Source: Candidatus Omnitrophota bacterium
GTDB lineage: Bacteria > Omnitrophota > Gorgyraeia > Ghiorseimicrobiales > Ghiorseimicrobiaceae
DNA length: 64,000 nt
Direction of reading: 5' to 3'
Assembly: GCA_030681595.1 (NCBI GenBank)
Contig: JAUXSB010000003.1
Location: 95,207-159,206 of the forward strand
Shown here: positions 20,255 through 37,465 of the stretch, piece by piece
How positions within the stretch are numbered: position 1 is the first letter of the stretch
Layout: every line of letters starts with the position of its first letter
Notes under the pieces: model-generated
The model's input: the letters and a program-made list of their open reading frames with translations, nothing else
What the model was told of the DNA's origin: nothing
The model's database searches: none
Program-made: the position numbers and the translations under genes

Positions 20255-21220
20255 CTATAATTTACTCCTCCAATAATTCAACAAATCTTTTAATGTTTTT
20301 TCAAGAGGAATCTTGGGTTTCCAGCCGGTTTCCTTTTTAAACTTTGAACTATCCGGTACCTGCAAGGTTACATCAGAAGGCCTGAGAAGATACGGCTCTA
20401 CTTTAATTTTTGGTTTTTTATTGGTCATGGTTAATAAAATATCCAGCATCTCGCCTACCGTCAGGCTTCTTTCACCGCCGATATTATAAACCTCTCCGGC
20501 TGGGCACTTATTAACTAACAACCAATAGGCGCGCACAGTATCCCTGACATCAGCGAAGGTCCTGACGCTTTTAAGATTGCCGACATGGATAACCGGCTCC
20601 TGCAATCCTTTTTCTATCCGCGCGATTTGTTTGGCAAAAGAAGAAGAGGCAAAAACCTCTCCCCGGCGCGGCCCGGTATGGGTAAACATGCGCGTCCTGA
20701 TCGTCTTTATGCCATATGACAAAAAGTATTGAAAGGCGATCATATCTTCGGCAACCTTGCTGACCGCATAGGGGCTGGCGGGACGAAAAGGCTGATTTTC
20801 ATTAATAGGCACTTCATCCGCGTTTACCTGCCCATAGACCTCCGAAGAGCTGCAGATATGGACAACCGGGTCGATCCCTGCATAGCGGATAGCCTCCAGT
20901 AAATTTATTGTCCCGCAGGCGTTTGTTTCCACTGTGTTAACGGGCGCGTTAAAACTGGTTGGGACAAAAGACTGCGCCGCCAGATGAAAAATAATATCCG
21001 GCTTTATTTTAGTTATCGTATCTAATACGGATTTAGAATCCAACAGTTCACAATAAGAAAAATTAATCCTATCTATAACAGATGCGACATTATCCATCGG
21101 GCTTCTCCAGCGGCGAATGCCGTAAATTTCTATATCCTTGTCTTTTAGCGACAAGATATATTCCGCAAGGTGGCTTCCGACAAAACCCGTAATCCCCGTA
21201 ATCAAGACTTTCTTTTTCAT
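20255..21220 (-). CDS. GDP-sugar 4,6-dehydratase (Gmd/DmhA-like extended SDR)
   Basis: N-terminus MKKKVLITGITGFVGSHLAEY..IYGIRRWRSPM parallels the Gmd pattern ITGITGQDGSYL..HGIKRRSS. YxxxK catalytic pattern present. Confidence 0.6.
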   Translation of the reverse strand: MKKKVLITGITGFVGSHLAEYILSLKDKDIEIYGIRRWRSPMDNVASVIDRINFSYCELLDSKSVLDTITKIKPDIIFHLAAQSFVPTSFNAPVNTVETNACGTINLLEAIRYAGIDPVVHICSSSEVYGQVNADEVPINENQPFRPASPYAVSKVAEDMIAFQYFLSYGIKTIRTRMFTHTGPRRGEVFASSSFAKQIARIEKGLQEPVIHVGNLKSVRTFADVRDTVRAYWLLVNKCPAGEVYNIGGERSLTVGEMLDILLTMTNKKPKIKVEPYLLRPSDVTLQVPDSSKFKKETGWKPKIPLEKTLKDLLNYWRSKL

Positions 21221-21437: not shown

Positions 21438-22895
21438 TTAACTATCTTTAATTTTCTTATACACATCCGGCTGCTCATCGCCAATACCCTTAATAAACAT
21501 TTTGGGCGCATGCCAGAAATACATCAACGCTTGGAAGAAAGGTATACTAAAAAAGGAGGCATCCCGCCAGTAACTTAATAACATGACTGGCTTAAAGAGA
21601 TACGAAAACGATGAAGATAAAATTCGCTTAGAAAAACGCAGAAACAAGGGGTAGTGAATGAATAATTGTGCTGTCCAAATCAATTTTTTTATATTCTTAT
21701 ATTCATTATAGACATCTTTGGACTTATAGGTAAATTTCCCTGCAGCTTCAAGCAGATTTCTTTCGCGCAAAAATTCTGCCAGCTTTGTGCCTTTGTAAAT
21801 CTTAAGAATCCCTACCCTAATGCCATAAGGCTTAAGCACCCGGGCGAATCGAATACTTTCAATGGCATCTTCCATTCTCTCGCAAGGCAAACAAAGCATA
21901 ACGTTAGTCAAAAATTTTAAATTATACTTATTGAGCAACTTTGTGATTTCTATGTAATTTTTATTTGGCACTCTTTTATTCAAAATATTCATACGGATAT
22001 TTTCTACCCCATGTTCTAAACCAAAGGTTACCCCTTTACAGCCTGAATCCTTCAGACCTCGTATCATTTCTTCATTAATACCTAAAACAGAAATATTGCA
22101 AGTAAAAGACAAATCAATATGTTGCTTGTACTGCCTTAGAAATTCCATAACCCAATTTTCATTCAAATTAAATGTATCGTCGGAGAAATGAATCGCCCTA
22201 GTCGGATATTTAGAGATTACTGACTTCACTTCATTGATCACATATTCAACACTATGACGACGAACTAATTTTCCCTTGCCTTCATACATTTTCTTGAATG
22301 TAGGCTCAAAACAATAAGAGCAATCATGAGGACAGCCCCGCTGGGTCATAAATCTTTTTAAAGCAAAGTTTCGCAACAAAGGATATTTGTCATAATATAA
22401 CCCTCTATCCGGGAAGGGGTATTTATCCAAATCGGATTCCAACTTGCCAAGATCATTTTTTATCCATCTGTCTTTCTTCTTTATCCAGAGATTCGGGATA
22501 TCATCGGTTTCTTGACGTGCATCAATGCGATTCATAAGCGTCAACAAAGATTCCTCACCCTCTCCCCTACAAATAATATCAACGTATCCACTGTCTACGA
22601 CTTCTTCAGGCATAAACATACAATGAGCCCCTCCCCAGACAACTAAATGTCCGGTTGCTTCTTTAATAATTTTCGCTATGGGCCTGAATATATTTACTTG
22701 TGGTGTCATTACAGAAAACCCGACAAGATCAGGCGAGGTTTTTTTAATAAACTTCAAAAGGTCATCTATTTTTTTATATTCCCATAACAAAGTAAGCCTT
22801 ACATCGTGACTGTGTTTTTTTAAATACGAACTTAGGTACATAATCCCTAAGCTTTCGTTAATAAAAGTATCGCTGATAAATAATATTCTGGCCAT
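21438..22895 (-). CDS. B12-binding-domain radical SAM enzyme (class B, methyltransferase-like) 1
   Basis: N-terminal cobalamin-binding Rossmann-like region, then CPHDCSYC (CxxxCxxC). Confidence 0.8.
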   Translation of the reverse strand: MARILFISDTFINESLGIMYLSSYLKKHSHDVRLTLLWEYKKIDDLLKFIKKTSPDLVGFSVMTPQVNIFRPIAKIIKEATGHLVVWGGAHCMFMPEEVVDSGYVDIICRGEGEESLLTLMNRIDARQETDDIPNLWIKKKDRWIKNDLGKLESDLDKYPFPDRGLYYDKYPLLRNFALKRFMTQRGCPHDCSYCFEPTFKKMYEGKGKLVRRHSVEYVINEVKSVISKYPTRAIHFSDDTFNLNENWVMEFLRQYKQHIDLSFTCNISVLGINEEMIRGLKDSGCKGVTFGLEHGVENIRMNILNKRVPNKNYIEITKLLNKYNLKFLTNVMLCLPCERMEDAIESIRFARVLKPYGIRVGILKIYKGTKLAEFLRERNLLEAAGKFTYKSKDVYNEYKNIKKLIWTAQLFIHYPLFLRFSKRILSSSFSYLFKPVMLLSYWRDASFFSIPFFQALMYFWHAPKMFIKGIGDEQPDVYKKIKDS

Positions 22896-23012: not shown

Positions 23013-24230
23013 TTACTTAGTGAATTTTTTGATAAACTTTGTGAATGTTGCCAAGATATAGTCCAGATGTTTTACGCCTAAATCCTGATGTACGCCGATA
23101 TGCAGGCCGTTTTCACCGATATATTCAGCAGCAGGAAAATCGCCATAGCGGTGCCCCAAAAAGGAAAAACCGGAGCACTGGGTCGGCATCGACGAAAATA
23201 AGCTACGCGAGTCAATGTTATTTTGCGTCAAAAAACACACTAGGTCCTGACGCCTGAAAGGCGCTCCCCGACGAACCACAACGGGGAACGCATGGGGCCC
23301 GATTTTTTCATAAGACTCCTCTTCGATACTATAGAAAAATTCCTCGTTTTTTTTAAAACGTTTCATAAGATACAAAAGATTCCTACGCCGGCGCTCCAGG
23401 ATTTTTTTATAAATCCCTAAGTTCCCCAGGCCGACCGCCGCTTCGATTTCGTTCATCTTTGCCGAAAAACCTATGCGCTCAAAAAGAAACCGCATATCCT
23501 CGCCAGCACCATACTGGAACCTCTTCGGGCAAGACGCAGAAGCGATGTTGACTACGCACTGTTCACATTTACAGGCCCGACCGTGCGAACGCAAAGACCT
23601 CAAAATCTCGGCAAAATCTTTACGCTCCGTCACGACCATTCCGCCCTCTATCGAAGTAATGATATGCGCCACATAAAGACTAAACGCACCCAGATCCCCT
23701 AACGTCCCCACATGCCTGCCTTTGTACATCGCACCGTGCGCTTCCGCTGCATCCTCCACCACAAAAAGTTGGTGTTTTCGGGCTATGTGGTTAATTTCAT
23801 CCATAGCCGCTGGTTTTCCCATCAGATGAACCGGCATAATGGCCCTGGTCTTTTTTGTAACAGCCCGCTCAATAAGATCGGTGTCGATATTTAAGGTCTT
23901 TGGATCAATATCCACGAAGACCGGTTTAAATCCTGCCTGCAGAACCGCATTGCCCGTTGCCACAAAAGACAACGCTGGAACAATAACCTCATCGTTACGC
24001 TTGGCTCCGAAATCATAAAAAATGGCCAAAGCCAGGGCGTCTGCATCTGTTCCGGAACTCACGGCTACAGCCTGACGCGTAGCTATAAGCCGGGCGAAAC
24101 GTTTTTCAAACTCCCTAACATAGTAACCGCAAGAGACACGACCAGAATCCAAAATACGCCTCACCATATCTTTCGATTTTTTTGTGACCGTCATCGTTCC
24201 AAACGCAACTTTCATCGGATTTCTTATCAT
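23013..24230 (-). CDS. DegT-fold PLP/PMP sugar 3-dehydrase (E1/ColD-like), with His replacing the Schiff-base Lys
   Basis: DegT/DnrJ/EryC1 fold. In the PLP-lysine motif (ArnB SFHAIKNITCAEGG) this protein reads SLYVAHIITSIEGG, i.e. His at the Lys position. This is the hallmark of CDP-/GDP-4-keto-6-deoxy-sugar 3-dehydrases. C-terminal Cys cluster CKCEQC..x8..C. The true start is probably internal (MKVAFG..). Confidence 0.6.
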   Translation of the reverse strand: MIRNPMKVAFGTMTVTKKSKDMVRRILDSGRVSCGYYVREFEKRFARLIATRQAVAVSSGTDADALALAIFYDFGAKRNDEVIVPALSFVATGNAVLQAGFKPVFVDIDPKTLNIDTDLIERAVTKKTRAIMPVHLMGKPAAMDEINHIARKHQLFVVEDAAEAHGAMYKGRHVGTLGDLGAFSLYVAHIITSIEGGMVVTERKDFAEILRSLRSHGRACKCEQCVVNIASASCPKRFQYGAGEDMRFLFERIGFSAKMNEIEAAVGLGNLGIYKKILERRRRNLLYLMKRFKKNEEFFYSIEEESYEKIGPHAFPVVVRRGAPFRRQDLVCFLTQNNIDSRSLFSSMPTQCSGFSFLGHRYGDFPAAEYIGENGLHIGVHQDLGVKHLDYILATFTKFIKKFTK

Positions 24231-24964
24231 ACCAACCCCTTAGCCCAATGCCGTTTTGCATACGCGTACCTATCTGGGGTTCCAAAATCCAGAAGCCTCC
24301 CCTTCTGCACGAATCCAAAACATCTCTCTTTAAGAAAGAAAGGGAAAAAATCATACTCCAACGAAAAGGATTCTTTCCTGCGCATATGGTTAAAGACAGA
24401 GCGATCCATCAGATAAATACCTGCATTGTCAAAATGGTTTGGCTTGTAACTTGCCTTCTCTTCAAAACCGATGATGCGCTGACGGCTACCCAGAAGAACC
24501 TTACCGGAATCCACCTTACCGCAGCATCTGACTAAAACCAGAGAAAGCAACGCTTTTTTAACCAGATGGAATTTAAGAAATTTATCCAAACCGACGCGCA
24601 GAAAAGAATCGCCGTTTAAAACCAGAAAAACCCGGCTGCTGATCCACGGCTTGGCATGCCAAACAGCGCCACCCGTTCCCAGCGCTTTTGTTTCCCGACA
24701 AAACTCAATCTGCCAAGACGCAGGATGCTGCTGATAATATTTTTCAATCGTATGGCCCCGATAACCCGTACTCAAGATAAACCTTCTGAACCCAAACCCC
24801 GCCACATAAACCATCAGATGTGTCAGGAAAGGCTTACCTGAGAATACGCTCATGGGTTTCGGCCAGTCTTTGACAATTTTCTTGAGGCGCTTGCCTTTGC
24901 CGCCACAGAGAATAATCACGTCGATTTTTGCCGGATCCAGCATCTTTTTGGACTTTTGACCCAA
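24227..24964 (-). CDS. hddC: D-glycero-alpha-D-manno-heptose 1-phosphate guanylyltransferase (HddC-like)
   Basis: VIILCGGKGKRLKKIVKDWPKPMSVFSGKPFLTHL..ILSTGYRGHTIEKYY closely parallels HddC (ILAGGLGTRL..VKDLPKPM..GKPFLEYL..ILSVGYLGEQIKEYF). Confidence 0.65.
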   Translation of the reverse strand: MGQKSKKMLDPAKIDVIILCGGKGKRLKKIVKDWPKPMSVFSGKPFLTHLMVYVAGFGFRRFILSTGYRGHTIEKYYQQHPASWQIEFCRETKALGTGGAVWHAKPWISSRVFLVLNGDSFLRVGLDKFLKFHLVKKALLSLVLVRCCGKVDSGKVLLGSRQRIIGFEEKASYKPNHFDNAGIYLMDRSVFNHMRRKESFSLEYDFFPFFLKERCFGFVQKGRLLDFGTPDRYAYAKRHWAKGLV

Positions 24965-25963
24965 TCAATAATTCGAATTCGGCCGATAATAAATAATCTG
25001 GCTGCCGAGTTCGTCAAAACGGAACGGAACGTGAATAAGGCCTTTGAGCTTCTGTTTAACGCGGCTCTGTAATTCGCGCTTGACATAAAGGAGCATAAAG
25101 CCGCCGCCGCCGGCGCCAAGAATCTTACCTCCGATGGCCCCGGCCTTTCTAGCTCTAAGATAAATTTCATCAATTTTCGAATTCGTAATATTTTTGCTCA
25201 GCGTCTTTTTGATAAGCCAAGTCTCATGAAGCAATTTCCCGAAATTTTCCAAAGGCTTCTGCTCATGGTTGAGGATATTCAAGGCTTCATTCACCATCGC
25301 ATACATAGTTTTTAATTCCTTAATTTTGTGGGGAATATTCTTGATCTGCTCTTCGGCGATCTCCGATGCGGTGCGCGAAAAACCAGTGAAAAAAAGCATG
25401 AGGTGCTGCTGGAGAAACTTCATCCTCTTAACGCTAATCGTTACAGGCGAAACCTCGATGTTTTTGTATCCGTTGAATTCAATTTTGTTTAACCCCCCGA
25501 AGGCAGCACTGACCTGATCCTGCGAGCCCACGTTCTCTTTAATCCATTCCTGCTCTACCTCAATGGCTTGGAAAGCCAGCTCTTTTTTTGTAACCATCCT
25601 CCCCTGAAGAGCATGGAGCGCATGCAAGAAACCGACTGTAAAAGAAGAGCTTGAACCGATACCCGTACGCGCCGGAAGGTCTCCAACATGCTGCAGGCTG
25701 ATGCCACGCTTGATGTTCAGATAGCGCAGACCCTCCCGCACCGCTGGATGCTGAATTTCAGCTACCTTCCTAACCAGTTCCTGCTTGGAATAAACGATGC
25801 GGTATTTCCAATCGAAAAAAGGCGGCACATAACAAAGCGTGATGTAGCAGTATTTGTCGATCGTCGTAGCTAGCACAACTCCGGGATGGCCATGATACCA
25901 TTCCGGATAATCTGTGCCACCGCCGAAAAAAGAAATGCGAAAAGGTGTTCTGCTAATAATCAT
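24965..25963 (-). CDS. hddA: GHMP-family sugar kinase, D-glycero-D-manno-heptose 7-phosphate kinase-like (HddA)
   Basis: RTPFRISFFGGGTDYPEWY..VVLATTIDKY..PARTGIGSSSSFTVGFLHAL GHMP motifs. Adjacent to hddC. Confidence 0.65.
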   Translation of the reverse strand: MIISRTPFRISFFGGGTDYPEWYHGHPGVVLATTIDKYCYITLCYVPPFFDWKYRIVYSKQELVRKVAEIQHPAVREGLRYLNIKRGISLQHVGDLPARTGIGSSSSFTVGFLHALHALQGRMVTKKELAFQAIEVEQEWIKENVGSQDQVSAAFGGLNKIEFNGYKNIEVSPVTISVKRMKFLQQHLMLFFTGFSRTASEIAEEQIKNIPHKIKELKTMYAMVNEALNILNHEQKPLENFGKLLHETWLIKKTLSKNITNSKIDEIYLRARKAGAIGGKILGAGGGGFMLLYVKRELQSRVKQKLKGLIHVPFRFDELGSQIIYYRPNSNY

Positions 25964-26008: not shown

Positions 26009-26506
26009 TCATGCATCCCTTTGCGAACAGATGGGGTTTGTGGACGACCAAAGAATGTTAAAACGCGGATCATCCCATTTATAGGAAAACTGCTTCTCCG
26101 GATTATAATACGTGGACTGCTTGTAACTAAAGATGACTTTATCACTTAAAACGTAATAGGCGTTGCCGTAACCCGGAGGAATCAAAACCTGCAGCCTGTT
26201 TTTGTCGCTTAATGTGAATGACTGCCATTTGCCGAAATCTTTGGACTTAGGATCGCAATTCACCACGACGAAGAAGATTTCGCCGTAAAAACACGAAATC
26301 AATTTCCATGTAACGAAATCACCGTGAATACCGCGCAACACATTGTGTTTGGAAATAGAAATATCGTCTTGGATAAACTTTATATTGATGCCGTGTTTTT
26401 GATACAGGCCTTCATTGTACGTCTCGACGTATTCACCACGAAAATCCTTAAACGGATCAAGGCGAATTAATAAAACCCCGCCTAACTTAGTCTTAACAGT
26501 TTTCAT
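26009..26506 (-). CDS. RmlC-like cupin NDP-4-keto-6-deoxy-sugar 3,5-epimerase
   Basis: F.DFRGEYVETYN..VLRGIHGD..KLISCFYGEIFFVVVNCD..FGKW..LIPPGYGNAYYVLSDK fits the dTDP-4-dehydrorhamnose 3,5-epimerase family. Confidence 0.7.
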   Translation of the reverse strand: MKTVKTKLGGVLLIRLDPFKDFRGEYVETYNEGLYQKHGINIKFIQDDISISKHNVLRGIHGDFVTWKLISCFYGEIFFVVVNCDPKSKDFGKWQSFTLSDKNRLQVLIPPGYGNAYYVLSDKVIFSYKQSTYYNPEKQFSYKWDDPRFNILWSSTNPICSQRDA

Positions 26507-27840
26507 ATTCCCGCTTTCTTAGACTTATCAAATCTTTCATAAGCTTCATCCTGATACCTCAAAAGGTCATTATCAGAAACCTTAGATAAATTTATGCCTA
26601 CGCTATCATAATAATTGGATGCTTCCATCTGCTCAAAGCTCCATATGTCAACAAGGCCTATCTGACAAGCAAGATCATAAACATGCGTGCCGGGATACGG
26701 GGCCAAGATCATAAACTTTGACTGATCGGCGTTCAACTCAAATGCGAAATCAATGGTTTCCTTAATCGTCTCCTGTGTATCTCCCGGAAGCCCAATAATA
26801 TAACTGGCTATGATTGGCAATCCTACTTCTTTCATAATTCTAGCGGCCTTCCTAAACTGTTCTTTCGTCTCCTTCTTGCCTATCCTAACCAACATCTCTT
26901 CATTGCCACTTTCAACTCCTATAGCCGCAAAACAACACCCTGATTTCTTTAAAATATCTGCCAACCTCTCGGTAACTGAATCTGCCCGTAACTGTACCGT
27001 ATAACTTATATCAAATTGTCCTTCTATAATGCGATCACAGATAGAGAATGCGCGCTGCTCATCAATCGCAAATGTATCATCCCAAAACATTAAGTTTCTT
27101 ACCTTTAAACGGTTAGCAATATCAGAAATCTCATGTATAACATTTTCTACTGAGCGTAACCTAAGCTTTCTTTTCCATGTAACAGCGGATGCGCAAAAAA
27201 TACAATCATAAGGGCATCCTCTGCCGGAATAGATTGCAAGATGGCTCCCGCTGAAATAAGTTGGATCATCATACTCCTTAATATCCATTAAATCCCACGC
27301 GGGAAACGGTAATGCGTCAAGGTTATTTATAAAAGGGCGGACCGGGTTGACTTTTACGGAAAGTCCATCCTTATAGACAATGTTTTTGACTCCGGACGGG
27401 TCCTGTTTATTCTCTATTTTTTCTAAAAGCTCAAGGAGCGCTTCTTCGCCTTCTCCGACAATACCATAGGAAATACCATCCATCATAGAAGTTAAAGGCG
27501 TGCCGGTCACGTGAGGGCCCCCAATAATTGTAAAAATATCCGGCTGCCTTCGTTTTATTTCCTGCGCTGTTTTAACGACAACGGGGAACCTCGGAGTCAA
27601 CGTTGTAAAACACACGTATTTTGGATGGCTTTGCAATATAATCTCAGCCATCTGATCCACAGAGCTAGCAGGAGTCACCTCAAAATCAATGATAGAGCAG
27701 TCAAAGCTTCCTTTTGTACGAATAAAAGAAGCTAAAAGCGCAATATTAAGAGGGCAACGGATTACTCCTTGTTTTTTCCATTGCCCGGACTTCTGCAGAT
27801 TCGGCGGGCGGACAAAAACAACTTTTGCTTTATTCCCCAT
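26503..27840 (-). CDS. B12-binding-domain radical SAM enzyme 2
   Basis: B12-binding region (IGGPHVTGTPL), then GRGCPYDCIFCAS. Confidence 0.8.
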   Translation of the reverse strand: MGNKAKVVFVRPPNLQKSGQWKKQGVIRCPLNIALLASFIRTKGSFDCSIIDFEVTPASSVDQMAEIILQSHPKYVCFTTLTPRFPVVVKTAQEIKRRQPDIFTIIGGPHVTGTPLTSMMDGISYGIVGEGEEALLELLEKIENKQDPSGVKNIVYKDGLSVKVNPVRPFINNLDALPFPAWDLMDIKEYDDPTYFSGSHLAIYSGRGCPYDCIFCASAVTWKRKLRLRSVENVIHEISDIANRLKVRNLMFWDDTFAIDEQRAFSICDRIIEGQFDISYTVQLRADSVTERLADILKKSGCCFAAIGVESGNEEMLVRIGKKETKEQFRKAARIMKEVGLPIIASYIIGLPGDTQETIKETIDFAFELNADQSKFMILAPYPGTHVYDLACQIGLVDIWSFEQMEASNYYDSVGINLSKVSDNDLLRYQDEAYERFDKSKKAGI

Positions 27841-27849: not shown

Positions 27850-28848
27850 TTAGCCTTCGGATAAAATGCTGTAACGCCGCGGAAGGGCAGATTTATGCTG
27901 TTGATACCATTTTAATGTTTCAGAAATTCCGCTATCCAAAGCCACTTTTGGCATCCATCCTAATTCATTTTTTGCTTTTTCTATACTGGCAACTCTATAT
28001 TTTTCGCCCGCCTCTTTAGCAGCATCCCATTGGATATTAATCTTTTTGCCGATAAATTTCTCCGCGCAATTAACAATCGTATCCGTAAGATCCCTGATAG
28101 AAACCGGCTTGCCGCTGCCTACATTATAAGGGCCGGCGGCATTTTTAAAAACCATTAAAAGCAAAAAATCAGCAACGTCTTCGGAAAATATAAAATCCCT
28201 TACAGCAGACCCATCACCCCAGACAACTAACGGGTCTTCCCCGCTAAAAATACGTAAAATTAACGACGGTATGACTAACGCCGAAACTGAATTAAAATTA
28301 TCGCATGGCCCATAAGTATTTACCGGGCGGGCTATTAAAAAATTTTCTAATTTATACTGAAGCTTATAAGCCTCGATCTGCATCTCGCCGATGAGTTTAG
28401 CCATTCCGCCAAATTTATCGGACGGATGAGGAAGGCCGTTTCCCGCATTTTCTTCCAGAAATATTTCAGCGGGCGGATAAACACAGATGCTGCTGGTATA
28501 TAAGAATTGTTTAACACCGGCAATTCTTGCGGCTTCCATAATCTGAATATCCATCAAAATATTTTTTACCAAAAAACTGGAAGCTTTCGATTTGGCAACG
28601 CCTATCCCGCCTTTAATCCCAGCCAAATGAAAAACAATATCTGCCCCTCTGACTGCTTGGGCGCATACCTTTTTATCGCATAGATCCCCTTTTACAAACT
28701 CAAACTTACCCCCAGCCGCCGATTCTTCATCAAGGCTTACAATCCTGACTTCTGCTTCCATCTCCTTGAGCTTCTTTACCAAAGGAGTACCTATTAATCC
28801 TGTACCGCCTGTTACTAATACTTTTTTATTACGAAAATAATTTTTCAT
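27850..28848 (-). CDS. GDP-L-fucose-synthase-like NAD(P)-dependent epimerase/4-reductase (Fcl paralog 1)
   Basis: VLVTGGTGLIGTPLV; NTYGPCDNFNSVSALVIPSLILRIF..VVWGDGSAVRDFIFSEDVA parallels Fcl NLYGPHDNF..HVIPALLRRF..VVWGSGTPMREFLHVDD. Confidence 0.65.
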   Translation of the reverse strand: MKNYFRNKKVLVTGGTGLIGTPLVKKLKEMEAEVRIVSLDEESAAGGKFEFVKGDLCDKKVCAQAVRGADIVFHLAGIKGGIGVAKSKASSFLVKNILMDIQIMEAARIAGVKQFLYTSSICVYPPAEIFLEENAGNGLPHPSDKFGGMAKLIGEMQIEAYKLQYKLENFLIARPVNTYGPCDNFNSVSALVIPSLILRIFSGEDPLVVWGDGSAVRDFIFSEDVADFLLLMVFKNAAGPYNVGSGKPVSIRDLTDTIVNCAEKFIGKKINIQWDAAKEAGEKYRVASIEKAKNELGWMPKVALDSGISETLKWYQQHKSALPRRYSILSEG

Positions 28849-28857: not shown

Positions 28858-29826
28858 TCAATTGAACTTAAATTTATTTTTTGACTCCTTATACCACCGA
28901 ACGGTATCTTCAATACCATCATTTAAAGAAATTTTCGGCCTAAAACCCAGTAATTTCTTTGCTTTTGATATATCAACCATCCTAAACGGTATAGTAGTAG
29001 GTTTAGAACTATTAAAGATAAGCCTGGCTTTTTCATGCCCGCAAGCCCGTAAAATTATTCGCACGACATCTTTGACCTTTACGGCCTCGCCGTAACCTAT
29101 GTTAACCGGATCGCATTCTGCGTTTTTCTCCAACATTAATAGACAGGCCAGCGCCAAATCAGATACATGCAAAAAATCACGTACTTCTTCGCCCGTTCCC
29201 CAAACCTCATAAGGATCTTGTTTTTCAACTGCCCTGCGTATTAACGCAGGGATTACATGGCTGGCCTTCGGGTCAAAATTATCCCAGCGGCCGTAAATAG
29301 CTGTTGGGCGGACAATAGCGATTTTTACTTTAGATTTCAATGCCACAAATTCCCCCAACCGCTCCAAATACCTCCGCATCCAGCCATAACCAAAATAACC
29401 TTCGTAAGGCGAGCCATTCCACATTTCTTCTTCCTTAATAGGATAATCGGCAACCGGATAACCGGTGCTACTGCTAAACAAGAGAAACCTTTCAACTCCA
29501 ATATCACATGCCGCCTGAAGCATCTGGCTTGTTAAAACAAGGTTGACCGTAATAGCTGACATAGGGTTTGCTGCCACCGCTCCTGAGCCGGCAACAACTC
29601 CTGCGGCATGAAAACAATAATCTACGCCGCTAAGCACCTTTAAACAATCTGCCTGTTTTGCCAGGTCGGCGCGCATCAACTCTATGCGCTTATCTTTAAT
29701 CGTCATCGGGCGTTTATGTATCGGGACACGCACGCGCGCTCCGGATTTTAAAAGTTCTTGCACAATATGCGTTCCCACAAAACCCGTCCCGCCGGTAACT
29801 AAAACAAGCCTATCCCGATAAAACAT
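28858..29826 (-). CDS. Fcl-like NAD(P)-dependent epimerase/4-reductase (paralog 2)
   Basis: LVLVTGGTGFVGTHIV; AIYGRWDNFDPKASHVIPALIRRAVEKQDPYEVWGTGEEVRDFLHVSD. Confidence 0.65.
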   Translation of the reverse strand: MFYRDRLVLVTGGTGFVGTHIVQELLKSGARVRVPIHKRPMTIKDKRIELMRADLAKQADCLKVLSGVDYCFHAAGVVAGSGAVAANPMSAITVNLVLTSQMLQAACDIGVERFLLFSSSTGYPVADYPIKEEEMWNGSPYEGYFGYGWMRRYLERLGEFVALKSKVKIAIVRPTAIYGRWDNFDPKASHVIPALIRRAVEKQDPYEVWGTGEEVRDFLHVSDLALACLLMLEKNAECDPVNIGYGEAVKVKDVVRIILRACGHEKARLIFNSSKPTTIPFRMVDISKAKKLLGFRPKISLNDGIEDTVRWYKESKNKFKFN

Positions 29827-29836: not shown

Positions 29837-30706
29837 TCAACGATTTTTTATCCTTTGCTCTATATTTTCCTTAATAGATTCAATATCCAAACCGATCTTC
29901 TTTCTTATATCTACCAGCGTCCCATACCAGCTGCAAAATTTATCCGGAAGCCCGTAATAAGAAACGGACAAATTTGGCACTTCGCAAACAGCCTCATACA
30001 AACCAAAAGCATCATGGATAACCATAATTTCTGTATGCCTGAATCTCTCAATCAGTTCTCTATCAATGGGTTTTATTGTATGAAAATAAACAAGATTGAC
30101 AGGCAAATTCCGGCAGGCTTCCATAACATTACCCAATATAGGGCCGGCTGTCATAACGGTAAGTTTAGAACCGGAATCCTTTAAAATAACCCCTTTGCCA
30201 AACTTCGCCGGAATATCAATATTATGCGGGTAGTCCGATAATCTGAAATAAGTAGCTTTCCCGTTGTTATACTGGCTTCTAAGCAAGGTATCTAATTCTT
30301 TTTTAGAACCCGGCTGAATTACTTCTATATCAGGCAATAATCTCAAAATAGCTAAATCGGTATAACAATGGTGCGTCGCGCCGTCCCAGGCATAATCAAA
30401 AGAAGCGCCGCAGGATACGATGTTGGCACCGAAGCGGTTATAACACAGGTCAATCTTAATCTGCTCAAGGCTTCTTTCGGTAATAAAAGGCGTGATGGTA
30501 TGGACAAAAGGAAAAAATCCCAGAAAACTCAAACCCGCCCCGATACTGATAAGCGCATTTTCACAAATACCAATATTATAAAATCTGTCCGGATACTTTG
30601 CTTTGAAATCGTTAAAAAGATAAACGCTGACGTCGCCGAATATCAGAACGATTTTATCGTCGTAGGCTGCCAAATCCATTACAGTATCTCTAAATTGCTT
30701 CCTCAT
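29837..30706 (-). CDS. Transketolase, C-terminal section (pyrimidine-binding/C-terminal domains)
   Basis: IFGDVSVYLFNDF..YNIGICENALISIGAGLSF.GFFPFVHTITPFITERSLEQIK matches transketolase and DXS-type Pyr domains. Confidence 0.75.
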   Translation of the reverse strand: MRKQFRDTVMDLAAYDDKIVLIFGDVSVYLFNDFKAKYPDRFYNIGICENALISIGAGLSFLGFFPFVHTITPFITERSLEQIKIDLCYNRFGANIVSCGASFDYAWDGATHHCYTDLAILRLLPDIEVIQPGSKKELDTLLRSQYNNGKATYFRLSDYPHNIDIPAKFGKGVILKDSGSKLTVMTAGPILGNVMEACRNLPVNLVYFHTIKPIDRELIERFRHTEIMVIHDAFGLYEAVCEVPNLSVSYYGLPDKFCSWYGTLVDIRKKIGLDIESIKENIEQRIKNR

Positions 30707-31472
30707 CCAACTCCTTCATCAGCTGTTCAAATTCTTTTTCATTCGGTGATTTTCTGTGCCATTCGTAAGGACTGGAAACAAATGTATTACAGCCGAAGCC
30801 TTTTTTTGTATGTGCTATAATGGCAATTACAGCATTCGCTTTCCTGAGTATCTCGCTTTTTAGAATATCTATATCGTGCCCGTCAGCTTCTCTAATCTCG
30901 CACCCGAACGCCGCAAATTTTTCAGCAGGATTAACTATCTGAAGCCCTCTTGAATGCGACATATTATTATCATAGATTATGGTCAAATTATTAAGCTTTA
31001 AGCTGGTTGCAACCATAATTGCTTCCCAGACAGAACCCTCGTTAGATTCTCCGTCGCCGATCACCACATAAACGCGCCGTTCGGATTTTTGTATCTTTAG
31101 CCCCAACGCTATACCAACGGCTAGGCCAATACCATGCCCTAACGAACCTGTGGAAGCTTCAACGCCGGAGACTTTAAACCTATCGGCATGACAGCCAAAG
31201 TCTGACATAAATCCGCCGAACGAATACACTTTTTTAAGGTCAAAATATCCGAACTTAGCCAAGACACAATAGTGCGCAAGACTTGCATGCCCTTTACTTA
31301 AAATAAATATATCTCGTTCTTGCCATGAAGGAAGCTTGGGATTATGCTTAATAGTACCATATATTGCATATACAATCTCAACTACAGAAAAACAAGATGG
31401 TATATGCCCATGACCACTTTTTCTTGATATATCAAGAATTTGCTTTCTTATTTCTTTACACCATTTATTCAT
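30690..31472 (-). CDS. Transketolase, N-terminal section (TPP-binding domain)
   Basis: SGHGHIPSCFSVVEIVYAIY..LSKGHASLAHY..GSLGHGIGLAVGIALG..VYVVIGDGESNEGSVWEA. Confidence 0.75.
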   Translation of the reverse strand: MNKWCKEIRKQILDISRKSGHGHIPSCFSVVEIVYAIYGTIKHNPKLPSWQERDIFILSKGHASLAHYCVLAKFGYFDLKKVYSFGGFMSDFGCHADRFKVSGVEASTGSLGHGIGLAVGIALGLKIQKSERRVYVVIGDGESNEGSVWEAIMVATSLKLNNLTIIYDNNMSHSRGLQIVNPAEKFAAFGCEIREADGHDIDILKSEILRKANAVIAIIAHTKKGFGCNTFVSSPYEWHRKSPNEKEFEQLMKELDEEAI

Positions 31473-31491: not shown

Positions 31492-32931
31492 CTAAATATT
31501 AGTAATATTTTGACTCAACCGCTGCAAATAATCCGCTATCTTTTTCTTTGGATTACGCAAGTAAGCCATTTGCTGTAGTTCTTTTCTTTTTGACCAAGAT
31601 AACTCTTTGCTTTCCATTACACCTGGATCCTGTTTACCATAATGACTCCAATTATCAGAAACAATTTTCATGCCATATTCGCCTCTTAAAGCCATCTGTC
31701 TTAACTCTGTTCCGGGAAAAGGAACTGCTATAGGAAAAGTAACAGAATAAAGATCCAATTTCTCAGCCATTGCTATTGCTTTCATCACATGTTTCTCAGT
31801 ATCGCCCGGCAAACCAATAATGAATGCACCGACAGGTATAATCCCCGCCAGTTTAGTCCACCTTACCACATCCTCTATTTGCTTAGTAGTAATATTTTTC
31901 TTGATTAATTTTAAGGTCTGATCATCGGCACTTTCCAATCCAAAGAAAATAAAATAGCAACCGGCGTTTCTCATGCGTTTTAGTAATTCCAAAGACATAT
32001 CACTAACACGAGTACTGCATGACCAGGTAATTTTCTTATGTAACCCCCGGTCAACAAACACGTTCAGGAATTCATCAACCCATGCCATATTAATAAGAAA
32101 GGTTTCATCTAAAAAAGCAACGGACTTACAATTAAATTCGCTGATATTACGTTCTATTTCTGCAATGACCGAAAGAACACTTCGGTGGCGGACCGTAGAA
32201 CCCAATGCACGGCAGCAAAAGACACAACGATACGGGCACCCTCTCCCCGTTACCATAGGTAATTCAAGGTTTGTCCTATGCGGATAAGTCCCGGGGTATT
32301 TCGACAGATTAAACTCTTGCCATGCAGGAAAAGGTAGGGAATCAAGATTCAGAATAGGATTATTAGAGGCCCCGACAATAACTTTTTCCGTCATCCTGGT
32401 TATAACTCCATTTATTCTAGATAAAGCCTGATCATTTCCCAGAGAATCAAATATTTTCGGCAAAACCTCTTCGCCTTCTCCGCTTATAACAAAATCAAAC
32501 CAGGGAAATTCATCCAATGTTTCTTTAGGAATTGCTGTGACATGCGGTCCCCCTACGCATATTTTCACTTCAGGGAGTGTATGTTTTATTTTCTCTGCAA
32601 TAAAAGCCGCAGTTCTGACCTGGATTGTAAAAGCGGTAAAACCAACTACCGCCGGTTTCGTTTTGGAGACAAAATCAATAAGTTGTTCTATGGAAAAACA
32701 ATCTATAACCATATCTATGTATTTAACTTTTAACCCTTCTTTTTTTGCGATGGCTAAAAGATACGCTATCCCTATATGCGGAGTTTCCTGATTAGGAATA
32801 TCTTTCTCAATCCTCACATTCATTTTATTTTTCTGATCCAGTTCCCAATTAAGGCTGGGATTTATGAGAAGTAAATCAAGCTTATTTTCATCCCCCGCAT
32901 CATACTTCCCAATAAAAACATCTGCTACCAT
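31492..32931 (-). CDS. B12-binding-domain radical SAM enzyme 3
   Basis: B12-binding region (CVGGPHVTAIP), then GRGCPYRCVFCC. Confidence 0.8.
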   Translation of the reverse strand: MVADVFIGKYDAGDENKLDLLLINPSLNWELDQKNKMNVRIEKDIPNQETPHIGIAYLLAIAKKEGLKVKYIDMVIDCFSIEQLIDFVSKTKPAVVGFTAFTIQVRTAAFIAEKIKHTLPEVKICVGGPHVTAIPKETLDEFPWFDFVISGEGEEVLPKIFDSLGNDQALSRINGVITRMTEKVIVGASNNPILNLDSLPFPAWQEFNLSKYPGTYPHRTNLELPMVTGRGCPYRCVFCCRALGSTVRHRSVLSVIAEIERNISEFNCKSVAFLDETFLINMAWVDEFLNVFVDRGLHKKITWSCSTRVSDMSLELLKRMRNAGCYFIFFGLESADDQTLKLIKKNITTKQIEDVVRWTKLAGIIPVGAFIIGLPGDTEKHVMKAIAMAEKLDLYSVTFPIAVPFPGTELRQMALRGEYGMKIVSDNWSHYGKQDPGVMESKELSWSKRKELQQMAYLRNPKKKIADYLQRLSQNITNI

Positions 32932-32950: not shown

Positions 32951-33718
32951 CTATTTTATTTCAATATAGGAAATCCTTGAAGTCATAGGGAATCGTTCGA
33001 TTTTTGAATGTTTAAGCCCCAGGGTCTCTTTTAATGCCATTGTCTCTCCGGGAAAAATATCATCGCAGAGCTCATCAAAAACAAGAATACTTCCCCTGCA
33101 TAAATTCGGCATGATTGTTCTTAAAGCAACCTTTGTCGGTTTATAAATATCAAAGTCAAAAACTGCCAAAGAAATAATGGTTTCAGGATGTTTCTTAAAA
33201 TACGCGGGGACAGTTTTTATCGCATCGCCTTTCATAAGCTCATATCTTTTTAAATGTGACATGGGATTAAGCGCTTCCTGCTTCGCCAATACCTTATCTA
33301 GATAATCTTCATACCCAGAAGGCAATGAAAAGGACCCATCAACGCATTTACTGCGAGTTCCGTCTTTTTTATCCACTCCTTTAAACCCTTTAAAGGTATC
33401 GAAACCGACAATTTTCCTATGTCTGTTAAAAGGCTCAAATAGGCCGCGTAACGCCGACATCAATGAAAGAGTCTGACCCCATCTTACTCCGAATTCTACA
33501 ATAATGCCGTGAACATGAATTATCTTTTTATATATTTCGTAGAAGAATAATAACCTTGAGAGATTCTTTGAAGTTAAAAACAACCCCAGATTCGACAATA
33601 ATTCTTCGCTAGGCAACGGTGCGGTTTTCAAAAGATTGACGAATTGAGCCAAAATCTCCTTTTCTCCCTGGCTGGATAATACGATTGCATCATATTTTTT
33701 AGTTTTCATTTCTTCCAC
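32951..33718 (-). CDS. TylF/MycF/CmcI-family SAM-dependent methyltransferase
   Basis: 255 aa; GIIVEFGVRWGQTLSLM..GSILVFDE fits the macrocin-O-MT / CmcI class I MT pattern. Confidence 0.55.
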   Translation of the reverse strand: MEEMKTKKYDAIVLSSQGEKEILAQFVNLLKTAPLPSEELLSNLGLFLTSKNLSRLLFFYEIYKKIIHVHGIIVEFGVRWGQTLSLMSALRGLFEPFNRHRKIVGFDTFKGFKGVDKKDGTRSKCVDGSFSLPSGYEDYLDKVLAKQEALNPMSHLKRYELMKGDAIKTVPAYFKKHPETIISLAVFDFDIYKPTKVALRTIMPNLCRGSILVFDELCDDIFPGETMALKETLGLKHSKIERFPMTSRISYIEIK

Positions 33719-34686
33719 CGCCTTTTATTTTCAATCCACCATTGGGTAGTCATACTTATCCCTTCATCAACACTGTACTGCGGCTGCCACTGAAGTATGC
33801 TTTTTGCCTTTGCGCAATCAAGCGCCCTAAAGGGAATAGTTGAAGGTTCACGGCTGTTGTATTTGATTTTTTTGGGTATGTGTCCAGCATGTTTAAGCGC
33901 AAGCGTAACTACTTCGCGTACCGTCGTCTTAACTCCTGAGCCGATATTAAAAGTTTCATGTTTAATTAAATCATCATTCATCATTAATGCAATTGCCCTG
34001 GCAAAATCCTCCGAGTAAACCACATCTCTCGTCACCCCAGGGCTGCCCCAGACCTCAAAGGGATCCATTTTATCCACTGCCTTGCGAATAATAGCAGGAA
34101 TGAAATTGGACGTCTTGGGGTTAAATTTCGCATAAGGACCGAATATATTTGATACCCGCGCAACAACAATTTCCATCCCCGAATGCATGTTCCAAAATTG
34201 GCATACTTTTTCAATAAATCTAAACGCCCATCCAACTCCGAAGTAATTTTGATGCGGAGCATGGTTTAAATCAAGCTGTTCTTCCTTTATATGGCCAATG
34301 TATTCCTGATACACTGTTGCTGAACCAACAAATACCACTCTATTAATGTGTTCCCTGTAGAACGCCTGAAACATCTGAATATTCATTATCACATTATCAT
34401 ACATCTGCTCCCAAGAATAAACCGTGGCTGCGCCAGCACCCACGGAATTTGCCGCCACCATAATAGCACAATCACACCCCTTGCATATCTGCCTGCACTG
34501 TTTCTCAGACCTTAAATCGCCATATACATACGCTATCCTTTTATCCCTAATAAAGGGTTTTGTATGTTTGTAAAAAGAAGCTTTAATGCGGGTTTTTGGA
34601 TACTGTGCGAGAACATGCTTGATAACACTGGTACCCGCTAAACCAGTTGCACCGGCTACAAATAGTGTTTTATTATCCAAATACAT
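33706..34686 (-). CDS. Fcl-like NAD(P)-dependent epimerase/4-reductase (paralog 3)
   Basis: TLFVAGATGLAGTSVIKHVL; NIFGPYAKFNPKTSNFIPAIIRKAVDKMDPFEVWGSPGVTRDVVYSEDFA. Confidence 0.65.
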   Translation of the reverse strand: MYLDNKTLFVAGATGLAGTSVIKHVLAQYPKTRIKASFYKHTKPFIRDKRIAYVYGDLRSEKQCRQICKGCDCAIMVAANSVGAGAATVYSWEQMYDNVIMNIQMFQAFYREHINRVVFVGSATVYQEYIGHIKEEQLDLNHAPHQNYFGVGWAFRFIEKVCQFWNMHSGMEIVVARVSNIFGPYAKFNPKTSNFIPAIIRKAVDKMDPFEVWGSPGVTRDVVYSEDFARAIALMMNDDLIKHETFNIGSGVKTTVREVVTLALKHAGHIPKKIKYNSREPSTIPFRALDCAKAKSILQWQPQYSVDEGISMTTQWWIENKRRWKK

Positions 34687-34692: not shown

Positions 34693-35427
34693 TTATTTTT
34701 TTATATGCCAACCGCAAAAAATTTCCTGCAAGATAAGTAACAAAATGTATGAACCATTGATCAAGGGGCGATTCTTTCTTATCCCCCCTATGCGCTTCGG
34801 TTCATCACCTGGTATTTCGCCGACTTTTAGTTTTTGTTTAGCACATCGGATTGCCACAAGCGGTTCAAAACCAGCCATTTTTACATACCTATTGTCGAGC
34901 TGAAACAAACTTTTCTTCCATGCGCGAAAACCAACCAGAGTATCCGTATAATGCCCCCCAAATAATACATTAATCATAGCGGTAAACATCCAGTTACCAA
35001 AGGCAGTCACCACGTCATCATCGTAACTCTTGGCTCCCTTTAGATACCGGGAAACGATAACCAAATCATATCCCTTTTTCATTTCCTCAACTAACGGCGG
35101 GATCAATTCAGGAACCGAATTTCCATCGGGCGTAAAAGTAATGATAATATCTCCAATTGCCGCGTCCAAAGCACCCTGATACGCGTTTACCAACCCTTTT
35201 AATTTTTGCTGCACCACAGGATACCCTAGTGATTGCGCATATTCACTAGTGCCATCGGTTGAATTGCCGTCAACAACAATAATCTGATCAACCCATTCTT
35301 TTTTTATTTTGGGCATCACAGCCTTCATGCCGTCAATTTCATTAAACGTAGGTATAACTAACGTTACTTTCATATTTAACCTCTCCTGTCTAAAGAATAC
35401 TGATACCGCATAATTCAACCCAGCCAA
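34693..35427 (-). CDS. Family 2 glycosyltransferase (polyprenyl-phosphate sugar synthase-like)
   Basis: VTLVIPTFNEIDGMKAVMPKI..IIVVDGNSTDGTSEYA matches the GT2 DXD-region pattern. Confidence 0.7.
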   Translation of the reverse strand: MAGLNYAVSVFFRQERLNMKVTLVIPTFNEIDGMKAVMPKIKKEWVDQIIVVDGNSTDGTSEYAQSLGYPVVQQKLKGLVNAYQGALDAAIGDIIITFTPDGNSVPELIPPLVEEMKKGYDLVIVSRYLKGAKSYDDDVVTAFGNWMFTAMINVLFGGHYTDTLVGFRAWKKSLFQLDNRYVKMAGFEPLVAIRCAKQKLKVGEIPGDEPKRIGGIRKNRPLINGSYILLLILQEIFCGWHIKK

Positions 35428-37315
35428 TCTCTTTCTTCGTATCGGCCGGACTAATATTGCACAATTTCCCGGTTAAAGGATCAAGAATGCCTACGTAAAT
35501 TTTATACTTTCCGCTACTAATGCCCGAAGAAATAGAAAACCAGTAATTTTCCTTTACGATCTCCTCTTCCTGCCAGGAACTAGTAGGATAAATACGGTAA
35601 CACAACGGATGAATCATACTCTGCCTGATCATATCGCTTGAATCTACCAGCACAATGGATAAAGAATAATCTTTAGCTATTTTACCAAGTGCCTGCCAGA
35701 AAAAAGTAATCAAAATTTTATCCTTTTTGCCGAAAATATTTTTTTCTAACTTATAACCTATAATTTTTATACTACCGTCAAAAACATCAGCCTTTAAATT
35801 GCTATCTAGAGCCGAACCGACTGATTCATAAAGGCCAAAATCCCCCTTGTAATCACGCTTAAAAAGAACAGTATTTTCTAACGCTCTTACGGGGCGTAAC
35901 TGCCACCTCGCCAAAAAGCTTCTTAAATCCGCATATCCTGCGTACGGCTGATAGAAATTATAAAAAGTCATACTATCATCAAAATCTATTAACGCAAACT
36001 CTGGCTGATCCAAAACAAGCAAACTGCTATCTTCGCTTAAAGATGTTCCCGCCAATACGCGGTGCAACGAATACAGGCTATCCGTAATATTAGATAGTTT
36101 AGGCAAAAAATTAAAAGTTGCGATTACGGAGCTATTTTTAGGTATTATTTTTATAAAATTATCTTTTTCTATCGCATCGCCTGTTAATAAGCATCCTTTC
36201 CTTATCTGACGCGATATATCAGGTTGCGGCCCTAACCGGATACTAAACGACAACGCCACAAAGATAATAGTTGCGCTGATTAAATATTTGTATTTTTGCG
36301 TTACGCTAGACTTGAGTAAAAATTTTAGCCCAAATACCGCGGATACAAAAATAAATGCGAGCATTTCAGAAGGATAATAGTAATATAGCGTTGTTTCAGT
36401 TTCTCTCAGAGAAAGTAGGTGTTGCAGAAAATTAGGCAAAACTGCTAATAGAATTACCGGATTTAAAAAAGAAAGAAAACTTAACGGCCCGAAAAGATTA
36501 AATAAGTACTCCATCTTTTGCGGCATAGCTATAAATTTTAACATCGCAATAGGATGAAATATAATTGTTTTAGCCATTTGCGCTGGTGTCGCTCCCAGAT
36601 GCGCATAGAGGCTGCCAGATATTGATTTTGCCTGAGCGAGATTCGGTAATATAATCAAGCCATAAAATAAGAGATAAAGAAACCCCGAGAGAAATGGCAA
36701 GGCGAACCATTTTTTTTCCTTCTTTTCAATCAAGGCGTATACACTAAGCATAATCAGGATTAAAGACATATTTTCCTTGCTTAGTAAGCATAAGAAATTG
36801 AATATTGCAAATTTTTTAAAATCATTTTTTATAAAAAAATATAATAAACAAAATTGTATAAACGGCAGGAAACTTTCCGGGTGAAATTCATTAAGATTGG
36901 TATAGCCGACCGCAGGGTACAATAAATAAATAATTACAAAAACCAAACCCCAAGCTTCGCTCAATAGCTTTCGCGCTATAAGAAACAATGGGATTGCCGC
37001 CAAAGCTAACATAAGGCTTTGTATCGCTAACAAAGTAACCGGATGCGGGAACAAGGCGTATATCGGGGCAATTAAAACTGCCGGCGTGATTTCAATATGG
37101 TTTTGAAGAAAATGCACGCCAATCAAAGAGATAAAAGACCTGCCGCTTATTAAGTTGCGAAAAGTCTGGTTATAGATAGCCAGATCCCAATCGCCATAAT
37201 TAAAATTAGCGTATCTGCAAAGGGAAACTTTCACAAATACGACTGCATATATGAAAATTAAGAAAAGTACAAAAAACCACAATATGCGGCTATAATTATT
37301 TCTGGCTATATTCAT
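35390..37315 (-). CDS. Polytopic membrane protein, DUF2079 / GT-C-like putative glycosyltransferase
   Basis: 641 aa with about 12 TM helices, then a roughly 250-aa soluble C-terminal domain. N-terminal region (DWDLAIYNQTFRNLISG) resembles the DUF2079 family. Confidence 0.5.
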   Translation of the reverse strand: MNIARNNYSRILWFFVLFLIFIYAVVFVKVSLCRYANFNYGDWDLAIYNQTFRNLISGRSFISLIGVHFLQNHIEITPAVLIAPIYALFPHPVTLLAIQSLMLALAAIPLFLIARKLLSEAWGLVFVIIYLLYPAVGYTNLNEFHPESFLPFIQFCLLYFFIKNDFKKFAIFNFLCLLSKENMSLILIMLSVYALIEKKEKKWFALPFLSGFLYLLFYGLIILPNLAQAKSISGSLYAHLGATPAQMAKTIIFHPIAMLKFIAMPQKMEYLFNLFGPLSFLSFLNPVILLAVLPNFLQHLLSLRETETTLYYYYPSEMLAFIFVSAVFGLKFLLKSSVTQKYKYLISATIIFVALSFSIRLGPQPDISRQIRKGCLLTGDAIEKDNFIKIIPKNSSVIATFNFLPKLSNITDSLYSLHRVLAGTSLSEDSSLLVLDQPEFALIDFDDSMTFYNFYQPYAGYADLRSFLARWQLRPVRALENTVLFKRDYKGDFGLYESVGSALDSNLKADVFDGSIKIIGYKLEKNIFGKKDKILITFFWQALGKIAKDYSLSIVLVDSSDMIRQSMIHPLCYRIYPTSSWQEEEIVKENYWFSISSGISSGKYKIYVGILDPLTGKLCNISPADTKKEIGWVELCGISIL

Positions 37316-37391
37316 AACTAATACTCAATAAACTCGCCCGACACCGTAAAAAAGACGGGGAATCCCAGTTGGCATGAAAATTTACTGGCCC

Positions 37392-37465
37392 CTGGATTAA
37401 TGTATGATTTTAATCCAGGGGCCTTGTTAAATAAATCCCGTTAGAGAACTCCGTCCTCTAACGGG
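37392..37465 (-). terminator. Tandem hairpins downstream of the K-rich ORF (candidate terminators)
   Basis: GGCCCCTGGATTAA-n9-TTAATCCAGGGGCC (14-bp perfect stem, 37392-37428). CCCGTTAGAG-n9-CTCTAACGGG (37437-37465). A U-rich tract follows on the minus strand. Confidence 0.55.

Follow-up and report, generated by a model that had tools for sequence, protein, structure and literature searches.

What does a DegT-fold protein do when histidine occupies the position at which its aminotransferase relatives carry the Schiff-base lysine? The question is posed by a reverse-strand gene (23013..24230) in the 64,000-nucleotide stretch of Candidatus Omnitrophota DNA analysed here, to which we refer as the window. 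A database entry 100% identical to its product, from a Candidatus Omnitrophota metagenome-assembled genome (MAG), is labelled just as a DegT-family aminotransferase; an earlier note, made from the window's sequence alone, had predicted a sugar 3-dehydrase dependent on pyridoxamine 5'-phosphate (PMP). On the strength of sequence comparison, we propose that the protein is probably a GDP-6-deoxy-4-keto-heptose 3-dehydrase of the E1/SpnQ type, dependent on PMP and on an iron–sulfur (Fe–S) cluster and served by no dedicated E3 reductase.

The protein is a full-length member of the fold-type I DegT/DnrJ/EryC1/StrS family, matching Pfam DegT_DnrJ_EryC1 (PF01041) over residues 16–395 (E 3.6e-94; 316 bits against a gathering cutoff of 19.8). 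Its closest solved structure by sequence (HMMER) was E1 of Yersinia pseudotuberculosis (CDP-6-deoxy-L-threo-D-glycero-4-hexulose-3-dehydrase, also AscC/DdhC/RfbH; PDB 3bcx, E 3.8e-57), aligned over the full length of both proteins (residues 11–400 against 38–433), and RfbH was its top NCBIfam model. ColD (2gms, E 8.6e-51) was the next match, with many Lys-type sugar aminotransferases around it. An AlphaFold2 model, computed from a 63-sequence alignment and with no cofactor included, was confident (predicted local distance difference test (pLDDT) 91, predicted template modelling (pTM) score 0.91) except in the Cys-rich loop described below; Foldseek again placed E1 3bcx first in the PDB (TM 0.86), among DegT-fold structures at TM 0.8–0.87.

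The active-site motif SLYVAHIITSIEGG (residues 184–197) bears the usual mark of a nucleotide-sugar 3-dehydrase, a histidine in place of the Schiff-base lysine. In HMMER alignments, His189 pairs with His220 of E1 (3bcx, 'sfypaHhitm'); the same column holds lysine in the E1 H220K mutant 3bb8 ('sfypaKhitm') and in the sugar aminotransferase 7b0m ('sfngnKiitt'). The Lys-to-His replacement reported by the earlier note is therefore real. That note had named a conserved lysine elsewhere in the motif as the finding that would overturn its prediction, and we looked for one in the 120 best database homologues (66–100% identity). None had a conserved lysine at or near the Schiff-base site, and the sole lysine within residues 171–210, K204, is variable in the family (E/K/S/P/R). 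An ordinary aminotransferase is ruled out by this absence. A sugar aminotransferase or bifunctional enzyme with no need of a Schiff-base lysine would agree with the database annotation, and SpnQ in the absence of a reductase does show aminotransferase activity when supplied with pyridoxal 5'-phosphate and glutamate (PMC8987622); we nevertheless consider it most improbable, given the missing lysine, the merely non-catalytic transamination by E1 H220K (PMC8987622) and the separate presence of ordinary Lys-type DegT genes in related loci.

Thirty-one residues past His189, at the same position as the Cys loop of E1, lies the sequence C220-K-C222-E-Q-C225-VVNIASAS-C234 (CKCEQCVVNIASASC), a predicted Fe–S site with the spacing C-X-C-X2-C-X8-C. 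The earlier note had seen this cluster but put it near the C-terminus, whereas it occupies residues 220–234 of 405, in the middle of the protein. In E1 (numbered as in 3bcx), the loop cysteines C251, C253, C257 and C261 lie within GRDCYCAPGCDNTCKKRF, spaced C-X-C-X3-C-X3-C, and two further cysteines, C192 and C193, lie within 'EDCCDALG'. The two loops align, with C220, C222 and C234 as the equivalents of C251, C253 and C261 and with Cys225 falling close to C257. The conservation of these putative ligands, which the earlier note had singled out as a check, was complete: His189, C220, C222, C225 and C234 were invariant in 120/120 homologues and also in the 63-sequence alignment, which reaches down to 32% identity. 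The signature AH...C-X-C-X2-C-X(6-10)-C was present in 85/85 non-redundant related loci from at least six phyla, and the combined His and four-Cys pattern exceeds chance. Confidence in the AlphaFold2 model drops here, with ten-residue block means of 51–79 across residues 211–260 and values below 50 at residues 227–232, which is how a loop that binds a cofactor should behave when the cofactor is left out of the model. With E1 as the best match in both sequence and fold, and with the histidine and the Cys loop aligned, the evidence supports the earlier note in its view that the protein is a sugar 3-dehydrase dependent on PMP.

Which type of 3-dehydrase this is depends on the fate of the intermediate. 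E1, ColD and SpnQ all begin by joining PMP to the 4-keto sugar as a Schiff base, whereupon the histidine removes the C4' proton of PMP and the 3-OH is lost; in ColD, the enamine is then hydrolysed and PMP is regenerated from glutamate, whereas in E1 and SpnQ the ene intermediate is reduced through a [2Fe-2S] cluster that is absent from ColD (PMC8987622). The reductant comes from the dedicated reductase E3 for E1 and from general ferredoxin or flavodoxin systems for SpnQ (PMC8987622). ColD-type enzymes are known for the substrate predicted here: in Campylobacter jejuni HS:5/HS:11, where GDP-heptose 4,6-dehydration followed by C3-dehydration has been demonstrated, His-type DegT enzymes that are 62–67% identical to ColD convert GDP-6-deoxy-4-keto-heptose to GDP-3,6-dideoxy-4-keto-heptose (PMC10440746). 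The earlier note had called a 3,6-dideoxyheptose unusual; it is rare, and these pathways show that it is not unprecedented.

Our protein could accordingly be a ColD-type 3-dehydratase that hydrolyses the enamine, releases ammonia and restores PMP with L-glutamate; the Cys loop would then be structural or Zn-binding and would transfer no electrons. The sole characterised GDP-heptose 3-dehydratases are of this type (PMC10440746), ColD structures are strong matches and no reductase partner is encoded nearby. However, ColD and the C. jejuni enzymes have neither a Cys loop nor an Fe–S cluster, and the four invariant cysteines overlie the Fe–S loop of E1; identity to ColD is ~28%, far from the 62–67% of the C. 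jejuni enzymes, which leaves our protein outside the ColD type. We judge this alternative distinctly unlikely. Of the two models offered by the earlier note, E1 (with SpnQ) is retained, although without its Cys193 ligand, and ColD is set aside on account of the low identity and the four-Cys loop. SpnQ (TDP-4-keto-2,6-dideoxyglucose 3-dehydrase of the spinosyn forosamine pathway), which we liken to our protein from its description, is an E1-type enzyme with the histidine and a [2Fe-2S] cluster and with no dedicated reductase (PMC8987622); its substrate is a TDP-hexose and its setting the secondary metabolism of actinomycetes, unlike the GDP-heptose role predicted here.

The distribution of the His-type, Cys-loop clade was assessed by scanning species-representative genomes, which returned 470 loci related to the target. 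The best 80 of these were 62–69% identical to it, all came from MAGs and belonged to Omnitrophota, Nitrospirota, Planctomycetota (including Brocadia), Elusimicrobiota, Thermodesulfobacteriota/Deltaproteobacteria and Firestonebacteria. The best 150 representatives at 50% identity (P0121–P0270) mostly had histidine and not lysine at the Schiff-base position, and they fell into the target's clade (AA-H-CCCC), an E1-like clade (CC-H-CCCC), loop-less ColD-like sequences ('SFYFSHH...HGW') and several other loop-less His clades. One large His-type clade with the motif STYVAHLLVTGVGG has an acidic 'IYLSIDDDD' loop replacing the Cys loop (for example, P0163, P0167, P0172, P0178, P0182 and P0229) and is often fused to glycosyltransferase family 1 (GT1), family 2 (GT2), methyltransferase or short-chain dehydrogenase/reductase (SDR) domains; no function is apparent for it.

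The substrate was approached through gene context. The target belongs to a tightly packed cluster of genes, all on the − strand, transcribed in the order 35390..37315 to 20255..21220 (Table 1). Its ATG overlaps the stop codon of the upstream HddC-like gene (ATGA), and the two are translationally coupled. The start is ambiguous (24213..24230): in most of the 80 best homologous loci the alignment begins only at query residue 6, so an alternative Met6 (24213..24215) may be the true start. By their best solved relatives, enzymes like HddA, HddC and a GDP-heptose 4,6-dehydratase stand alongside the target. The last of these, an SDR encoded two genes downstream in the same operon, matched the C. jejuni GDP-D-glycero-D-manno-heptose 4,6-dehydratase 7us5 over its full length (E 2e-88), compared with merely ~1e-45 for true GDP-mannose dehydratases, and carries the dehydratase-type motifs SSSEVYG, YAVSK and GPRRG. 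The cluster's remaining SDRs have GDP-fucose-synthase-type reductases as their solved-structure relatives. Like E1, the target would follow a nucleotide-sugar 4,6-dehydratase in its pathway, in this case judging by gene context; E1 belongs to a CDP-glucose context, whereas neither CDP-glucose pathway genes nor a dedicated E3/AscD reductase were found among the annotated window genes or in the related cassettes, where the neighbours are of the GDP-heptose type. The GDP-heptose context that the earlier note had assumed was thus borne out by neighbours closest to 7us5, WcbL/HddA, HddC and C. jejuni epimerases and by GmhA and GmhB genes in related cassettes, even though neither GmhA nor GmhB is encoded in the window.

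The cluster recurs as a cassette. Across 53 related loci of at least 17 kb, the HddA-like kinase was found in 51 (median identity 58%), the nucleotidyltransferase in 46 (40%), B12-binding radical S-adenosylmethionine (SAM) enzymes in 44 (27–28%), Fcl-like SDRs in 43 (31%), the split transketolase in 30 (28–37%), the 7us5-like dehydratase in 26 (50%) and the small GT2 in 21 (54%); five homologues looked up individually share the neighbourhood as well. The most frequent order was transketolase N-terminal half, transketolase C-terminal half, radical SAM, kinase, nucleotidyltransferase, DegT. With Escherichia coli GmhA and GmhB sequences as probes, clear homologues of one or both were detected inside the cassette in eight loci (L025, L078, L072, L013, L046, L003, L080 and L047). 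In L025, GmhA, GmhB, kinase, DegT and nucleotidyltransferase genes follow one another without interruption; L078 carries GmhA, kinase, nucleotidyltransferase and DegT, with a DAO-type FAD oxidoreductase gene between the radical SAM gene and GmhA; and L072 has GmhA, nucleotidyltransferase, kinase, SDR, 4,6-dehydratase, DegT and transketolase. These genes tie the clade to GDP-heptose derived from sedoheptulose 7-phosphate.

Other members of the cassette hint at what becomes of the product. A 3-dehydrase co-occurs with a thiamine diphosphate (ThDP) enzyme in yersiniose-type pathways as it does here, and in yersiniose synthesis the ThDP enzyme YerE acts after E1/E3 (PMC9306805); by analogy, the ThDP enzyme of the cassette could add a carbon branch. 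The window's enzyme is a split transketolase, replaced in the L001 cluster (1910..3909) by a two-subunit enzyme of the pyruvate dehydrogenase (PDH)-E1 alpha/beta type, and YerE is of the acetolactate-synthase type. One possibility for the transketolase is C-branching of the 3,6-dideoxy-4-keto sugar, and the PDH-E1-type enzyme of L001 would be compatible with the addition of a carbon branch to a keto sugar, as happens in yersiniose synthesis; another possibility is supply of sedoheptulose 7-phosphate. A literature search on transketolases in sugar branching gave nothing relevant. A GT-C-type membrane protein is usually nearby (DUF2079 in the window; PMT_2, with a GT2, in L001 and L007), and this GT2 and GT-C arrangement, taken with the fusion of the DegT domain to such a GT2 in two representative proteins, suggests, by analogy with the Arn system, that the sugar may be delivered via a lipid-phosphate carrier. 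The GT2 and the DUF2079 protein of the window are accordingly predicted to form an export or transfer arm.

Several observations weigh against our proposal, and the first of them concern the likeness to E1. The two proteins share just ~29% identity, and the RfbH model score of 267.4 bits lies below the equivalog cutoff of 423 (NF011936), which places the target outside the RfbH/DdhC orthologues. A crude neighbour-joining tree of the 50%-identity representatives does not put the target's clade beside E1; the Cys loop may be either ancestral and repeatedly lost or gained twice, a choice that this tree is too crude to settle. In addition, E1 Cys192 and Cys193 correspond to Ala161 and Ala162 in EDAAEAHG, the latter exactly 57 residues ahead of C220. 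Agnihotri and colleagues are said to have given the E1 [2Fe-2S] motif in 2004 as C-X57-C-X1-C-X7-C; we take the ligands to be C193, C251, C253 and C261, E1 residues that the motif spacing fits exactly in the alignment. With alanine in place of this presumed ligand, any cluster in the target, whatever its type, would be held by the loop alone, or by three cysteines and a non-Cys ligand. The extra invariant Cys225 could stand in for the missing C193 equivalent, and ligation by loop cysteines only, as predicted from the alignment, is a real departure from E1. The E1 Cys193 equivalent is alanine in the target's clade and cysteine in most His-type DegT clades, many of which have no Cys loop at all; judged from these sequences, that distribution raises the question of whether this cysteine is primarily an Fe–S ligand.

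Electron supply is a further point on the same side: no E3-like reductase or ferredoxin was found in the window or the cassettes. A Pfam search of the window flanks for an E3/AscD-like reductase met just lysine, arginine and pilus genes, and when the cluster region of the window and 87 loci were scanned for CxxCxxCxxxCP, the only matches were a LUD/CCG protein (two loci) and a NIL-ferredoxin (one locus), neither of them consistently linked to the cassette. There were also no reductase fusions among the representatives, in which the fusion partners are GT2 domains in the target's clade (C-terminal to the DegT(His, Cys4) domain in P0122 and P0124) and SDRs in the E1-like clade. Because the histidine and the invariant Cys loop are accompanied by neither an E3 nor a consistently linked ferredoxin, we propose an electron supply like that of SpnQ.

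The remaining points on that side concern the substrate. The kinase and the nucleotidyltransferase score below the HddA and HddC NCBIfam equivalog cutoffs (124 bits against 300 for HddC) and are thus relatives of heptose enzymes, not proven orthologues. The 7us5-like dehydratase was detected in just half of the related loci, as counted above, and minimal cassettes have a single distinct extended SDR (TTNSGY...YGxxK) that is not 7us5-like (L050 7360..8313, L059 4064..5017, L078 1724..2671 and L077 7141..8310; ~22–26% identical to the window SDRs); the substrate of the family may therefore not always be 6-deoxygenated. These two observations, together with the B12-binding radical SAM gene that several loci have between their nucleotidyltransferase and DegT genes, favour E1-type chemistry on another substrate. 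This could be a GDP-4-keto-heptose that keeps its 6-OH after oxidation at C4 by an SDR, or a hexose, or else a sugar on which the radical SAM or ThDP enzymes have already acted; in any of these cases the product would not be a 3,6-dideoxyheptose. Yet the window holds a full-length 7us5 relative in the target's own operon, and in L072 the dehydratase gene lies directly upstream of the DegT gene, and we regard a different substrate as unlikely.

For the GDP-6-deoxy-4-keto-heptose 3-dehydrase, we infer cluster binding, electron donor, exact substrate and all downstream steps from homology, residue identities and their conservation, and gene context, each observed directly. Substrate would be supplied by the HddA-like kinase, the HddC-like guanylyltransferase and the GDP-heptose 4,6-dehydratase-like SDR next door. 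GDP-6-deoxy-4-keto-D-lyxo-heptose would condense through its C4 keto group with bound PMP to a Schiff base, after which His189 would take the PMP C4' proton and the 3-OH would be expelled. The resulting delta-3,4-ene intermediate would be reduced in two one-electron transfers via an Fe–S cluster in the C220/C222/C225/C234 loop, with electrons presumably from a general ferredoxin or flavodoxin, as for SpnQ, to give GDP-3,6-dideoxy-4-keto-D-threo-heptose and regenerate PMP. Tailoring of this keto product would fall to the epimerase, Fcl-like reductases, ThDP enzyme and B12-binding radical SAM enzymes of the cluster, after which the small GT2 would pass the sugar to polyprenyl phosphate and so on to the GT-C-type transferase. 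The radical SAM enzymes may act on the heptose as C-methyltransferases or in the manner of diol dehydratases.

More tentatively, these elements may belong together: a large, uncharacterised clade of GDP-heptose 3-dehydrases with a loop-only Fe–S site and no dedicated reductase might catalyse the committed step of a cassette (HddA, HddC, split transketolase, B12-binding radical SAM, SDR, GT2 and GT-C) that makes an undescribed 3,6-dideoxyheptose that is C-branched, C-methylated or both, placed on the envelope via a polyprenyl-phosphate carrier in Omnitrophota, Nitrospirota, anammox Planctomycetota, Elusimicrobiota and Thermodesulfobacteriota. C3-deoxygenation chemistry and 3,6-dideoxyheptoses are already known; the Fe–S-type enzyme with GDP-heptose, the all-in-loop Cys4 motif and the widespread uncharacterised cassette would be new. 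C3 deoxygenation by E1 is textbook PMP and iron–sulfur radical chemistry, carried out by very few enzymes and on CDP- or TDP-hexoses. If our proposal is correct, the clade extends that chemistry to GDP-heptoses with an alternative cluster ligation by four cysteines in one loop, and thousands of database entries labelled 'aminotransferase' would be re-annotated. Very high conservation across phyla (62–70% identity) within a single cassette points to an envelope sugar, as yet uncharacterised, that is widespread in uncultured anaerobes, anammox bacteria among them.

Table 1. Genes of the sugar cluster in transcription order, followed by sites within the target protein. Matches are to profiles (Pfam, NCBIfam) or to solved structures (PDB).
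Feature	Positions	Strand	Basis or remark
DUF2079 membrane protein	35390..37315	-	DUF2079, E 4.8e-57
Small GT2, polyprenyl-phosphate glycosyltransferase-like	34693..35427	-	Closest to AglJ, Dol-P-hexose transferase, ArnC and PpgS models, all below curated cutoffs
Fcl-like SDR, third	33706..34686	-	Profile matches
Weak TylF-like methyltransferase	32951..33718	-	Profile matches
B12-binding radical SAM enzyme, third of three	31492..32931	-	Profile matches
Split transketolase-like ThDP enzyme	29837..31472	-	N-terminal half 30690..31472, C-terminal half 29837..30706
Two GDP-fucose-synthase-like (Fcl-like) SDRs	28858..29826, 27850..28848	-	Predicted 4-ketoreductases or epimerase/reductases
B12-binding radical SAM enzyme, second of three	26503..27840	-	Pfam; type conserved beside the kinase in the cassette
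RmlC-fold cupin, GDP-4-keto-heptose 3-/3,5-epimerase-like	26009..26506	-	8dcl, 8dak and 7m14 (C. jejuni), E ~5e-36
HddA/WcbL-like GHMP heptose-7-phosphate kinase	24965..25963	-	4usk, 3k85 and 4n3o, E 3.6e-35 to 8.6e-31
HddC-like sugar-1-phosphate guanylyltransferase	24227..24964	-	5xhw/6jq8 ('6-deoxy-D-mannoheptose pathway protein'), E 4.5e-31
Target, DegT-fold, His-type, Cys-loop enzyme	23013..24230	-	405 aa; Pfam, E1 match
B12-binding radical SAM enzyme, first of three	21438..22895	-	Pfam B12-binding and Radical_SAM
GDP-heptose 4,6-dehydratase-like (GMD-like) SDR	20255..21220	-	7us5; predicted supplier of the 4-keto-6-deoxy substrate
Active-site motif	23640..23681	-	His189 (23664..23666) replaces the Schiff-base Lys
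Cys loop, residues 220–234	23529..23573	-	Predicted Fe–S site
Ala161-Ala162, at the E1 Cys192/Cys193 positions	23745..23750	-	Distal ligand position without Cys

The best NCBIfam models of the three B12-binding radical SAM genes were HpnJ, PhpK, BchE and AprD4, all far under cutoff. The flanks of the cluster are housekeeping genes, among them UvrA, TPR proteins, PanC/HPPK, lysine and arginine biosynthesis and type IV pilus genes. Nearly all genes of the window lie on the − strand, the sole long + strand open reading frame (ORF) being 56973..58916, and all 2-kb bins have negative GC skew. The sole RNA gene found in the window was a tRNA-Ala(CGC) at 1731..1806. Between the sugar cluster and an aspartate-dehydrogenase-like ORF, an 865-bp stretch (37316..38179) holds no ORF of at least 100 amino acids and no Rfam or tRNA match; it may be a promoter or regulatory region of the cluster.

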